In this document: piece by piece, positions 18,820-22,782 of the stretch
Position numbering within the stretch: the stretch's first letter is position 1
How the letters are laid out: each line of letters starts with the position of its first letter
Source of the DNA: Promethearchaeota archaeon
GTDB taxonomy: Archaea > Asgardarchaeota > Lokiarchaeia > Sigyniarchaeales > SOKP01
Reading direction: 5' to 3'
Length of the DNA: 64,000 bases
Assembly: GCA_016840085.1 (NCBI GenBank)
Contig: JAEOTA010000056.1
Span: forward strand, 35,717 to 99,716
Position numbers and translations under genes: made by a program
Notes under the pieces: generated by a model
Told to the model about the DNA's origin: nothing
Database searches by the model: none
The model's input: the letters and a program-made list of their open reading frames with translations, nothing else

Positions 18820-19158
18820 CTAAAAGAAATTTCTCGTCTCGAATCTATATGCTGCTCGCGTTAAACCTACATAATTATCTGAGATTTTATAAAACATTTT
18901 ACCATTTACAATTTTCTTCTGTAAGTAATTATTTTTTAGAGTATGATTGAGAGCGCCGATCATAGTCCCTAGCGTGACTGCTCCTATAAACCCATGCTGT
19001 TTTTTAGTTACTCTTATTAATTCAAGCTCAGAATGCCACTGACCATCGAGTAAAGCTATTAGAATTTCGTTTTTAATTGGAGTTTTAATATCCTTAATTT
19101 TATTAAATAAAATTGAATAGCTAGGTTTATAGTATTTATTTTCCTCAATTCCTTCCAT
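18820..19158 (-). CDS. Winged-helix-like small protein
   Basis: EILIALLDG..HSELEL..., C-terminal beta-wing KKIVNGKMFYKIS. Confidence 0.6.
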   Translation of the reverse strand: MEGIEENKYYKPSYSILFNKIKDIKTPIKNEILIALLDGQWHSELELIRVTKKQHGFIGAVTLGTMIGALNHTLKNNYLQKKIVNGKMFYKISDNYVGLTRAAYRFETRNFF

Positions 19159-19270: not shown

Positions 19271-20392
19271 TTATATCAAATCAGGTGTGATGCCCTCTTT
19301 AAAATATCTGGCTCGAGTTATCCAATTGTCTGAGAATTCTGGAATCATGGCCAGAATAGAACCACCAATCCAAACGGAAAATGTCCTTTCTTGAGGAGCA
19401 ATAATTCTGAGGGACTGATCTTTTTTCTTCCTCCTAGCCAACTCCAATTCTAATTCTTGATATATACGTGATTTTAGATTAGGGAACATTGAAGATCCTC
19501 CAGATAGAAATATGTTGTTTAATAATTCTGGACGAATATCTAAATCACAAGCTCCAATCACATCTATTATAGCAACGGGTAATGAGTCTTCCTCTAATTC
19601 TGAAGAAGGGTTAAATAAGAGCTCTGGTACAATAAATCTTTCTTTATTCAAAGAAATAGTGGAGCCATCGGGTAAGGAATATTCCTTTTCATACTGTTCA
19701 CTTCTTCTTAGGTCTTCTTTATAATCTAGCGATACAAAACAAGCCTTTTCCTTTAATACTCGAACTAGTTCTCGTCTTATAGATGAATCTACAGACCATC
19801 CAATTGATTCTAATGTTTGTTCCATATACCGAGTTAAGACTCTTCCTCCTATGTCCAAAATCTTTACTGCATGTTCTAATTTATAGCCTTCATAAATTGG
19901 AACAATTCTGGTATTACTATCACCAATTTCAATAATTAAGCCTGTTTGAAATCCTCCTGAATATAGAGTCAACATAGAATCAAGTACAGGATAAAAAGCC
20001 ATGCATTGATACTGCTCTAAGAAAAGTTCAAAAATTTTTTTTAAATCTTTATACGGAAATAAAGGGTGTACAGCAAATAATACATGCACCAAAGTGGGAT
20101 CTACTCTCAAATTATAAAAAATATAATCAATAATGTTTTCAAAACGTGCCCAATCTATAATCATCCCTCGTTCTATAGGATGAGAAATCTTATATAAACC
20201 AATTGATTGAATTTCATCACCAACATAGATTTCATTTTCTCGAGATTCATTTGTTACATAATCAATCCCTACACTTTGGTATTTGGGCTGCCCAACCATC
20301 GTTAAAAATACTTGGCTAGGTGAATCTTCTCCTGCAAATCCGATCTTTGAACTAAACTGACCTATATCTAAAACAACAGTAAGATTTCCCAT
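19271..20392 (-). CDS. Actin-family protein (divergent Asgard actin / Arp-like)
   Basis: VVLDIG..SKIGFAGED.P, YVGDE, PIERG, VPIYEG, YSLPDG, ERF.VPELLFNP, LSGGSSMF, SVWIGGSILA. Confidence 0.96.
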   Translation of the reverse strand: MGNLTVVLDIGQFSSKIGFAGEDSPSQVFLTMVGQPKYQSVGIDYVTNESRENEIYVGDEIQSIGLYKISHPIERGMIIDWARFENIIDYIFYNLRVDPTLVHVLFAVHPLFPYKDLKKIFELFLEQYQCMAFYPVLDSMLTLYSGGFQTGLIIEIGDSNTRIVPIYEGYKLEHAVKILDIGGRVLTRYMEQTLESIGWSVDSSIRRELVRVLKEKACFVSLDYKEDLRRSEQYEKEYSLPDGSTISLNKERFIVPELLFNPSSELEEDSLPVAIIDVIGACDLDIRPELLNNIFLSGGSSMFPNLKSRIYQELELELARRKKKDQSLRIIAPQERTFSVWIGGSILAMIPEFSDNWITRARYFKEGITPDLI

Positions 20393-20484
20393 AATTTATA
20401 TTAATTCAAATTTCTTTTTTGTTAAATAGCCTAAAGACCAATATTTAATATATTATTATACTAATTCAAAAATATTATTTACTT

Positions 20485-21231
20485 TTATACTAATAAAATT
20501 TTTAGTGGAGTATATGTAGTTTCCGGCATGAATGCTTCCCCATATTCGCTATTAATCTCATTCCCTCGTAAAATAGCAGTGTCTTTTGCCCAATCTAAAA
20601 CGCGTTCTAAAACTTCTTTTTGAGAAATATATACACGATTAAAAATTTCTTTTTTACGTTCCCAGGTCTCAGTAATATCTACAATTACAAATACAGATCC
20701 TTCAATATATTGAAATTTGCATGATGGGGATTCATAATAATAAACTCCATAAGGTTTCCATTCTCTTCCATGACCTCCGTAAGCTTTCCCGGTAGAACAA
20801 TGATAAATTGCTTCTCTTACTACAAATGATAAATTTCGATGCACTCTATGAAAATCTGTATAATGAGGTAATAAAATTACTTGAGGTTTGTAATCTCTTA
20901 TCAAATTCGTAATTTCTGCAATTTTTTCTCTTTCTCTCTCTAAATTTGAATAATTTAATTCTATAATTTCACATTTTAAAATTTCCTTTATAAAATCTAG
21001 TTCTTTTTCTCTCTGAGATGATATTGTTTCTTTATCCCGTTGTTTAGCATAACCACCTAATCCCCTAGTAGCTATAACAATAACAATTTCAGAACCAAGA
21101 TCTTGATATTTTAAAATTGTTCCACCACAAGAAATTAATTCATCATCAGGATGTCCTGCAAAGACAATTACTTTTTTTGGTATAATTACAGGAAGCTTAT
21201 CTTCACATATCAAAAATGAATTTTCTGGCAT
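20485..21231 (-). CDS. PIG-L / LmbE family deacetylase
   Basis: AGHPDDELISCGGT; later DFHRVH; terminal YGEAF. Confidence 0.9.
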   Translation of the reverse strand: MPENSFLICEDKLPVIIPKKVIVFAGHPDDELISCGGTILKYQDLGSEIVIVIATRGLGGYAKQRDKETISSQREKELDFIKEILKCEIIELNYSNLEREREKIAEITNLIRDYKPQVILLPHYTDFHRVHRNLSFVVREAIYHCSTGKAYGGHGREWKPYGVYYYESPSCKFQYIEGSVFVIVDITETWERKKEIFNRVYISQKEVLERVLDWAKDTAILRGNEINSEYGEAFMPETTYTPLKILLV

Positions 21232-21432
21232 TTAATATTAATTTTATCTTAAATATAAAAAACTTTGTTGAATTTCTATTTGAAGTTCATATTGAGAATT
21301 TAGGATCTACTTCTTAAATTTTAAAGCTACAATAATAAGTAATAAAAAGGAAGAGAAAAAGTATCTTAAGTTTCTATTCTACAATTTGATTCTCTCAATA
21401 GAATGTATAATTCTACCCAATTAAGGATTTAG

Positions 21433-22155
21433 CTATTCTCCTCTCATGATCTTCTTCAATCTATTTAACTCATCGAGCATTTCATCTCTAAGAGATCCTA
21501 AACCACCGCCTACTTGAGGAGCAGCTGCAGGTGCTGTAGGAGCTGCTGTGCCAGGAGGTCTTGGCGGTCCGCCACTAGGAGCTGTGGCAGGTGGTGCAGT
21601 TGGAGCGACAGGTCTTTTTGCAAATGTTGGTGCTTTTGGTGGACCACCACCAGCTGGAACTTTAGGGGGACCTCCACCTGAAGGAGGTAGTTTAGGGGCG
21701 GGTGGCAAATTACCACGCTTAGGGGGACCGCCACCAGGAGGTGCTTTAGGAGGACCTCCACTAGGGGGTGCCTTTGGAGGACCACCACCAGGTGGCGCTT
21801 TAGGAGGACTACCACCACTTGGAGGAGCAGGGGTAGCTGTCAGACTGGGGGGAGGTGGAGCTGCTGCTGAAGCCTCAGATGGAACTCCTCCGCTTAATAA
21901 GGAAAATAATGTGCTAGCTGCGGCTGTTTTAGCAGTATCAGGGGTTGCTGCTGCTACTATTTTTTTAGAGGAAGTACTTACTGTTTGAACTTCTTCTACA
22001 GTAATATCTTTTAAATCCTTCTGGGCTTTAGCTAAAGACTTGATAAAATCATTAATTCCTTTTACAGACTCCTCAAGATCATCAGCTAAAGAAGTTAGAC
22101 CTTTTTTCATAAAATTAATAACGCGTTCGATTTTTTTTTGCTCTTTTGAAACCAC
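21433..22155 (-). CDS. Coiled-coil + proline-rich protein with C-terminal WH2-like helix
   Basis: GTG start after GAGG; N-terminal heptad helix of about 50 aa; GGPPKAPP repeats; C-terminal SLRDEMLDELNRLKKIM. Confidence 0.85.
   Translation of the reverse strand: MVSKEQKKIERVINFMKKGLTSLADDLEESVKGINDFIKSLAKAQKDLKDITVEEVQTVSTSSKKIVAAATPDTAKTAAASTLFSLLSGGVPSEASAAAPPPPSLTATPAPPSGGSPPKAPPGGGPPKAPPSGGPPKAPPGGGPPKRGNLPPAPKLPPSGGGPPKVPAGGGPPKAPTFAKRPVAPTAPPATAPSGGPPRPPGTAAPTAPAAAPQVGGGLGSLRDEMLDELNRLKKIMRGE
21721..21830 (-). repeat. Coding tandem repeat, ~27-nt units encoding PP(S/G)GGPPKA
   Basis: Four consecutive units plus degenerate copies; synonymous differences between units; local GC far above background. 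Confidence 0.85.
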
Positions 22156-22548
22156 GTCTTACTCAATTCCTCTAATATTATTGAAAGTTTGATAAAAAGT
22201 TATTATTACTAGTAATAATCTAATATTTTAATTATATAATAAATTAATATGTATTTATATTTTTATTCCATTCTTGAATGAACTTTTAATTTGAACTAAC
22301 CAGTATTTCTGAAAAAACGTTAATTATTAAAAAACCTAAACTAATAATATTATATAACATATTTCATTAGTAATTTTTAAATTAATTACATTATAAATTC
22401 AAAAAAAAAATAAGACATAACTAAAATTTTTGCATTGGTGATTAAATATTCCTAAAAGAGAGCTCTTCATAATAGACTTAACACTCCGTTAGGTTTGTGA
22501 AAAAAGGGTATATGAAATAGTAAACGAGCTCAAAATACCACTGTTCCA

Positions 22549-22782
22549 TTGAGATCTCCTCATTTTACATTTGGAGTGGACATTGACGAGCGCGTTTATG
22601 ATAAGGTTACTTTCAGTACGGGATCGGCGATCGCATCCGTCATTTTCAAATTTGAAGAGGATGAATCTGTAATCCGAGGATTCCTCGGTCTTGCTGAATA
22701 CTTTCATACTGTTGTAATTAAGCGTAAGGACGAGTTTTTCATTCCTCATGCGTCTATATTGTTCCGTTTGATTAGCGCTTAA
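22549..22782 (+). CDS. Small hypothetical protein with uncertain 5' end
   Basis: GC-richer reading frame followed by a T-tract; frame open back to 22516, with an out-of-frame ATG at 22512. Confidence 0.65.
   Translation: MRSPHFTFGVDIDERVYDKVTFSTGSAIASVIFKFEEDESVIRGFLGLAEYFHTVVIKRKDEFFIPHASILFRLISA

Follow-up and report, generated by a model that had tools for sequence, protein, structure and literature searches.

A pan-Asgard family of proline-arm proteins with a near-invariant C-terminal helix, a candidate modular tether distinct from canonical WH2 proteins

We analyzed a stretch of 64,000 nucleotides (the window) that covers positions 35717-99716 of contig C51 in a Lokiarchaeia-type Asgard genome (G000; GC ~29%). 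The subject of this report is a 240-amino-acid protein with a proline-rich arm encoded in the window (P0001), to which we gave the working name PRO. PRO belongs to a real, strongly conserved, and previously undescribed pan-Asgard protein family. We favor, with a probability of roughly 0.55, a role as a modular tether or adaptor whose end helix would dock a highly conserved partner. The initial annotation had taken the protein for a prototype of the WASP or VASP type, with a WH2-like terminal helix that acts on actin. The end helix is not a canonical WH2 domain.

In the favored reading, the N-terminal helix would assemble or anchor PRO, probably through a ~90-aa protein encoded next to it (cl1), in place of a membrane anchor. 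The Pro-rich arm would be a flexible spacer that presents linear motifs, and the end helix would dock a deep groove or a helical bundle of a highly conserved cytosolic partner. A deep groove or bundle is suggested because only four of the ~16 helix positions vary. As candidate partners, a Vps4-type MIT domain and the actin groove rank about equally, and both rank ahead of self-association. Asgard archaea are the closest known relatives of eukaryotes, and the wiring of their actin, endosomal sorting (ESCRT) machinery, and small GTPases to membranes is largely open. The PRO end helix is among the most conserved short helices in these genomes, and the identity of its receptor would reveal a conserved interaction hub.

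PRO represents an undescribed family of Asgard proteins

A word-indexed protein search recovered more than 240 homologs of PRO, all labeled 'hypothetical' and assigned to bins such as Promethearchaeota and Lokiarchaeota. When 400 Asgard genomes were searched in six frames, 155 had a PRO match. We refer to the families among these genomes by number, with f1 as the window genome's own family and f5 as a Helarchaeota-like family, judged by the names of a neighbor gene. Matches were present in 117 of the 134 f1 genomes, in 13 of the 14 f3 genomes, and also in f4, f5, and f7. Weaker matches beyond the class proved to be true homologs with the same layout when their sequences were read directly.

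Searches of known libraries returned no described relative. PRO and its distant members gave only sub-threshold, coiled-coil-type noise against Pfam and NCBIfam, and a Pfam scan of 86 members found no domain. A profile search of the PDB with alignment A1 retrieved only designed antiparallel coiled coils (E 0.045), and the ESM Atlas contained no usable relative of PRO or of cl1. We came across no account of the family in the literature on Asgard WH2, nucleation-promoting factor (NPF), VASP-like, or Pro-rich actin regulators, where the 'WH2-like motif' of Thor gelsolins is of another kind than the PRO helix (PMC7444086). The initial annotation knew of no characterized protein with this architecture in archaea, and no description turned up in the family libraries or the literature.

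PRO is predicted to form three helices in an otherwise disordered chain. A single-chain AlphaFold 2 (AF2) model, built with an 86-sequence alignment, has a long N-terminal helix (residues 4-50; predicted local distance difference test [pLDDT] 89-98) whose sequence is near-invariant within Lokiarchaeia. It also has a short helix of the STLFSLLSG type that spans AKTAAASTLFSLLSG (residues 72-87; pLDDT 62-73) and a terminal helix (residues 219-237; pLDDT ~91). Between residues 90 and 215, Pro accounts for 36% of the sequence, Gly for 17%, and Ala for 18%, and the unit GG(G)PPK[AV]P occurs five times. The model and the composition bear out the layout proposed from the sequence in the initial annotation, in which a long helix, a short motif, a Pro/Gly arm, and a terminal helix follow one another.

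Conservation is distributed unevenly along the protein, which has three short linear motifs that are invariant. The Pro-rich arm varies among members in length and sequence, and alignment A1 has invariant columns at R147, P151, A153, P154, K155, L156, P157, and P158. Other conserved elements are AKTAAASTLFxLLSG, P-x-FAKRP, and TVSTSSKK. The end helix, GGGL(S/G)SLRDEML(D/E)EL(N/T)RLKKIMRG(E/D), is almost invariant over ~120 sequences that have ~60% identity elsewhere. Homologs also share the N-terminus (M/V/L)VSKEQKK, and because they keep VSKEQKK, the GTG codon of the window gene is the real start. The PTAP motifs of the window protein were discarded as candidate elements; they are not conserved in the alignment and are therefore composition-driven.

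The end helix is a mobile module with few variable positions

An exhaustive profile search over 1.84 billion representative sequences yielded 85 proteins for a survey of the module. The helix logo, built from 60 copies in 56 representative proteins, reads L0 R1 x E3 M4 L5 x E7 L8 x R10 L11 (K/R)12 x I14 (M/F)15 (R/K)16 G17. Only positions 2, 6, 9, and 13 are variable, and on a helical wheel they cluster on one narrow face. The remaining ~280 degrees of helix surface are therefore constrained, a value that is our own arithmetic from the 60-copy logo.

The tail is found well beyond the soluble form of 200-250 aa. An LF-type motif, a Pro-rich linker, and the terminal sequence ...SI(A/S)ELRGEMLKELRRLR(E/D)IFKEE end several other architectures. 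For example, polytopic membrane proteins of ~550 aa end in a PRO-type tail (f16, 22/22), as do proteins of ~300 aa in which one N-terminal transmembrane helix and a coiled coil precede it. In f13, f18, and f28, such single-pass forms were established by directly reading one or two loci per family; tail matches in these families occur in 26/31, 8/12, and 3/5 genomes, respectively. Zinc-ribbon proteins hold the helix alone, in two or three tandem copies, and one of them (P0196) combines tandem helices with an N-terminal Ras-family domain (PF00071, 5.5e-10). The window genome has the full helix in PRO only, as one copy. A 149-aa zinc-ribbon protein (C49:121280-121726(+), equivalent to L061:9281-9727) carries one LRDEML helix, YLRDEMLIELSNLRNII. 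Judged from these sequences, the arm-plus-helix tail is a mobile module reused across Asgard architectures.

Three further observations touch on this module. Some zinc-ribbon relatives in other Asgard lineages have an additional C-terminal alpha/beta domain. A Sec23/Sec24-like protein (C4:75549-77216(-), equivalent to L060:7547-9205) has a zinc finger, a trunk (PF04811), and a beta-sandwich (PF08033), and its C-terminal helical part includes GLKKEMMNELNRLRSV, which matches the PRO end helix weakly (E 0.034). Its gene is located ~0.9 kb from that of a Ras-family GTPase (L060:10065-10598) and near that of an Rce1-like CAAX protease (L060:10736-11476). Finally, the single open reading frame (ORF) of a 549-aa metagenomic protein (P0160) unites a full PRO-type protein with a transmembrane helix and with a TIR domain at the C-terminus (PF13676, 6.3e-18), which may be a true fusion or a gene-calling artefact.

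The end helix is not a canonical WH2 domain

PRO resembles actin regulators in the order of its parts. As in NPFs and Ena/VASP proteins, an oligomerizing type of helix comes first, a Pro-rich region second, and last a short C-terminal helix with an L-K-K-hydrophobic sequence; the helix module of PRO, like WH2 domains, is mobile and sometimes tandem. A WH2 domain begins with an amphipathic helix of about three turns, which a short linker joins to an extended LKK[TV]. PRO falls outside the WH2, Ena/VASP, and WASP families because it has no profile match, the wrong spacing, a helical LKKI, short Pro runs, and no EVH1, WH1, or acidic-Trp element.

The WH2 profile (PF02205) had no match at E<=1 in the window protein or in four distant members, and it was absent from the families matched by any of the 86 scanned members at E<=10. 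The canonical spacing LLxxIxxGxxLKK(V/T) occurs in 0 of 121 members, the set that we also used to count consensus matches and Pro runs below. The distance from helix to LKK in PRO is three residues shorter than in WH2, which makes LKKI helical rather than extended. Indeed, LKKI is placed inside one unbroken amphipathic helix (residues 219-237) in the AF2 model, hydrophobic periodicity continues across it, and DELNRLKKIMR has the highest amphipathic moment in the PRO helix (0.70). The second Lys is variable: among the 60 copies, the first LKKI column is L in 59 and the second K or R in 57, whereas the third is K in 28, E in 10, S in 7, and other residues in the rest. The fourth column is I in 46, L in 5, F in 4, V in 2, and T in none. 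Lineage-specific variants include LKSI (f5 and f7), IKEI or IKGM (f19), and LKAL in another lineage. The terminal helix, described as WH2-like in the initial annotation, lacks the profile match and the canonical spacing of that domain.

The comparison with NPFs and Ena/VASP proteins is also weak. The longest Pro run is two residues in 111 of the 121 members, three in eight, and four in two. No EVH1 or WH1 domain, central or acidic-Trp element, or F-actin-binding motif was found in PRO, and its C-terminus is ...KKIMRGE. According to one report, Loki profilins do not bind the polyproline peptide of VASP (PMC8410842). The LKK resemblance and the neighboring actin gene are poor evidence for an NPF, and these results correct that tempting over-reading. 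The failed WH2 membership lowers the claim that PRO is a WH2 protein; PRO may still bind actin.

Linkage to an actin gene is confined to one family

PRO is co-oriented with an actin-family gene and located two genes upstream of it (Table 1), as the initial annotation had it. The actin-family protein, called Arp-like in the initial annotation, is 41% identical to the two Lokiactins of the window genome, and among solved structures its nearest relatives are actins, not Arps. A fourth, more divergent actin-family gene is located elsewhere in the window genome (C79:42980-43924, 207 bits).

We sampled the linkage in 12 f1 genomes from seven genera and in 11 loci from f3, f5, f7, and f19; the f4 locus L051 was left out of the count, as the ORF calls included no recognizable PRO ORF. 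All 12 f1 genomes keep the order PRO-(PIG-L)-actin paralog-112-aa protein-(two membrane proteins)-717-aa ORF. PIG-L is missing between PRO and actin in five of them, and the PRO-actin distance is 0.2-5 kb (4-5 kb in two genomes). Synteny also covers the 717-aa ORF and a phosphoribosyltransferase gene on the flank, which makes this linkage block synteny within a single family. Outside f1, an actin gene was found near PRO in none of the 11 loci from f3, f5, and f7 (8 kb) or f19 (1.5 kb). Hence the linkage to actin genes, whose lack the initial annotation had named as grounds for refuting its reading, is conserved within f1 and breaks down beyond it.

Beyond f1, a likely ortholog of the actin paralog turned up only in f3, where it shares 51% identity and lies 44 kb away from PRO. 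Searches of f5, f7, f19, and f27 for an ortholog gave only Lokiactin-level matches (41-44%). The PRO family spans the phylum and the paralog is known from f1 and f3 only; therefore, the PRO family is older and wider than the actin paralog. On this distribution, PRO is not a specific partner of the neighboring actin paralog.

Candidate partners of the end helix

One candidate receptor is the MIT domain of Vps4 or of another protein. The end helix would then be a ligand of the MIT-interacting motif 1 (MIM1) type and PRO an ESCRT-linked adaptor of IST1-like plan, with a head, a Pro-rich linker, and MIT-interacting motifs. MIM1 motifs follow the consensus (D/E)xxLxxRLxxL(K/R) and bind the groove between MIT helices 2 and 3. 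PRO has the layout of the MIM1 tails of CHMP1/2/3 and IST1, an amphipathic helix at the extreme C-terminus behind a flexible linker, and an MIT domain is present in the Vps4 of the window genome (C2:94699-95934). Both ESCRT-III proteins of that genome end in helices in the PRO register, ...IAELEKELNRLKSDE and ...LQDEIEKLRKELEG, and share with PRO a pattern that is hydrophobic at 0, E at 3, L/I at 4, K/R at 6, L at 7, and K/R at 8. The same tail type is found in the ESCRT-III proteins of f3, f5, f7, f16, and f19. Furthermore, the PRO invariants E225, M226, E229, R232, and K234 coincide with conserved ESCRT-III tail positions, and the hexapeptide ELNRLK occurs just twice among the genome's ORFs of >=80 aa, once in an ESCRT-III tail and once in the PRO tail. 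In the arm of PRO, LPPAPKLPP loosely recalls the Pro-rich MIM2 motif, which is our own reading. Asgard Vps2/24/46 tails have been published as MIM1-like and modeled on the Vps4 MIT domain (PMC7240154).

Several results argue against this assignment, which we consider unlikely. The strict MIM1 consensus occurs in 0 of the 121 members, and with a hidden Markov model built from 10 ESCRT-III tails alone, PRO scored 7.7 bits and did not reach the top 25 of the genome. At position 0 of the register, all 60 PRO-type helices have Met, and every ESCRT-III tail examined has Leu. Compared with these tails, the PRO helix is longer and conserved on more faces, with extra invariants at L222, R223, I236, and M237, and the remainder of PRO is unrelated to ESCRT-III. 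Nor does PRO have genomic linkage to ESCRT genes. The pattern E[LIM]..E[LI].[KR][LI][KR], derived from ESCRT-III, has two C-terminal matches in ~4,258 genes, ESCRT-III-a and PRO, a count that is biased because M was allowed at the second position after PRO had been seen. We also considered PRO as a diverged ESCRT-III/Snf7 protein (PF03357), with its N-terminal helical part homologous to the ESCRT-III core, and rejected it: in a profile-profile comparison by hhalign, the PRO family (alignment A2) and 14 Asgard ESCRT-III proteins reached a probability of 2.3%, and there was no Pfam match. If the receptor is an MIT domain, the Asgard ESCRT network would extend past ESCRT-III.

Another candidate is the hydrophobic groove of Lokiactin, which the helix would bind in the manner of WH2, thymosin, or arcadin-2. 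The family would in that case be an anchored actin regulator that sequesters actin, links it to membranes, or promotes elongation. We regard this possibility as doubtful. A broader version, equally tentative, would have a pan-Asgard actin tether or regulator that works through the Lokiactin groove, predates and is unrelated to eukaryotic WH2 proteins and NPFs, and is membrane-anchored in Thor/Heimdall-type and cl1-anchored in Loki/Odin-type lineages. The extreme conservation of the helix suits a very conserved partner such as actin, and PRO is 0.2-5 kb from the actin paralog in f1. The helix module is found at C-termini after Pro-rich regions, and also in tandem; eukaryotic WH2 domains likewise occur C-terminal to Pro-rich regions and in tandem. 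An archaeal precedent built like PRO is the crenactin regulator arcadin-2 of Pyrobaculum (PDB 5LY3). It has a structured core, an unstructured linker that is not conserved, and at its C-terminus a small conserved helix of 17 aa; this helix is its only partner-binding element and occupies the crenactin groove with a Kd of 31 nM (PMC5173319).

The likeness to arcadin-2 has limits. Wherever arcadin-2 occurs, its gene belongs to the actin (arcade) cluster, whereas PRO has an actin gene nearby in one family only. Its binding relies on a Trp, which the PRO helix lacks, and unlike PRO it has no Pro-rich arm with invariant motifs. Other results also speak against the actin groove. They include the WH2 counts (profile, 0/86; spacing, 0/121), the location of LKKI in a continuous helix, the lack of polyproline runs, and the actin-free surroundings of PRO in f3, f5, and f7 (8 kb) and in f19 (1.5 kb), with the paralog confined to f1 and f3. 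Loki profilins, moreover, reportedly do not bind polyproline (PMC8410842). A ligand of a one-face groove would also need less than the ~280 degrees of conserved surface. Were actin the receptor, the family would represent an independent, pre-eukaryotic invention of tethered actin regulation, and a Lokiactin tether would give a first handle on the coupling of Asgard actin filaments to membranes.

The broad conservation could also reflect self-association or hetero-bundling, with the copies or their carrier proteins packing together without a separate receptor. Conservation extends to almost every face of the helix, as packing within a bundle would predict, and zinc-ribbon proteins carry tandem copies. 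The tetramerization helix of VASP is also C-terminal. However, 19 residues are short for a stable coiled coil, and AF2 does not pack the end helix on the N-terminal helix in the model. The window genome would furthermore offer few partners for hetero-bundling, because it has only one full copy of the helix. Of the partners considered, self-association is the least probable and, in our view, improbable.

The favored tether or adaptor has layout counterparts outside the archaea. In ZipA and in the C-terminal linker and peptide of FtsZ, a long, unstructured, Pro-rich spacer likewise connects an anchor with a small binding element at the end. They differ from PRO in being bacterial and unrelated in sequence, and the terminal element of ZipA is a globular domain.

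cl1 is a conserved genomic neighbor of PRO

The proposed anchoring of PRO involves cl1, whose gene is divergent to PRO in the window. The window genome matches the cl1 family (alignment A3) at E 1.2e-26. In ~80 f1 genomes cl1 adjoins PRO, mostly 250-600 bp apart and in divergent orientation. The two genes are also adjacent in f5 (1/1), f7 (2/2), f19 (4/4), f26 (3/3), and f27 (1/2, with the other pair 1.6 kb apart), and their relative orientation differs among lineages. Conversely, cl1 is absent from f13 (0/31), f16 (0/22), f18 (0/12), and f28 (0/5), the families with membrane-anchored tail proteins. Because cl1 is missing exactly where the tail protein has a membrane anchor, we infer that it works with the soluble N-terminal head of PRO, and it may stand in for the membrane anchor.

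The AF2 model of cl1 is confident (pLDDT 90), with a helix-strand-strand-helix-strand-strand-strand order. No family library contained a match. Roadblock, longin, and profilin-type folds were considered, but no fold could be assigned, as Foldseek against the PDB had a best E of 0.41 and VIA-align, over 48,161 chains, a best Z of 4.4. The failed fold match does not prove that the cl1 fold is new.

Several points weigh against the favored tether or adaptor. The AF2 model of PRO has a predicted template modeling score (pTM) of 0.25 and no tertiary contacts. The putative docking role of the end helix is read from conservation, and the putative role of cl1 from gene adjacency and phyletic complementarity. 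The cl1 fold gives no functional hint, since no solved structure matches it, and f3 loci have distances of 3, 24, and 262 kb between the two genes. Part of the cl1-PRO adjacency may also be inherited gene order, because housekeeping genes share the neighborhood.

In f5, f7, and f13, PRO-type genes have a tRNA-splicing endonuclease gene (PF01974/PF02778) at a distance of 1-3 kb (L052:6201-6749, L054:9672-10244, and L100:7426-8004). The other neighbors of the endonuclease gene there are often PhoU_div or RpiA together with a PIN-KH ATPase gene, which looks like an old housekeeping neighborhood.

Features of the locus

The features discussed above are collected in Table 1.

Table 1. Coordinates of PRO, its sequence elements, and the adjacent genes in the window.
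Feature	Position	Strand	Evidence or remark
PRO gene, 240 aa, GTG start	21433..22155	-	ORF; >240 homologs
N-terminal long helix, aa 4-50, MKKGLtSLsDDLeeTVKGINDFiKSLxKAxKDLK	22006..22146	-	AF2 pLDDT 89-98
TVSTSSKK motif, aa 57-64	21964..21987	-	Conserved; TTSTSV/TTSTAV equivalent in f26, f27
Short helix/linear motif AKTAAASTLFSLLSGG, aa 75-90	21886..21933	-	Consensus [LI]-[FW]-x-x-[LA]-x-G phylum-wide; AF2 helix 72-87
Disordered Pro/Gly/Ala-rich arm, aa 91-215, GGPPKAP units	21511..21885	-	AF2 and composition
R-x-N-LPPAPKLPP invariant linear motif, aa 147-158	21682..21717	-	Alignment A1 columns
P-x-FAKRP conserved motif, aa 176-182	21610..21630	-	Alignment
Near-invariant C-terminal helix GGGLGSLRDEMLDELNRLKKIMRGE, aa 216-240, putative docking element	21436..21510	-	60 copies in 56 proteins; AF2 helix 219-237
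cl1 gene, ~90-aa protein, divergent to PRO	22448..22782	+	ORF 22549-22782 matches family A3
PIG-L family deacetylase, optional insert between PRO and actin paralog	20485..21231	-	PF02585, 5.5e-23
Divergent actin paralog (P0002)	19271..20392	-	PF00022, 296 bits
112-aa protein, no family match	18820..19158	-	Always 3' of actin paralog in f1

Oligo-T runs are located ~70 nt past the PRO stop codon, and AT-rich, TATA-like stretches precede both downstream genes. These signals suggest that PRO and the downstream genes are separate transcription units, a weak reading at 29% GC. The repeat composition of the Pro-rich region lifts the local GC content to 35%. Two ORFs that overlap PRO, one of 102 aa at 21510-21818(-) and one of 146 aa at 21548-21988(+), were set aside as by-products of the CCN/GGN repeat composition.

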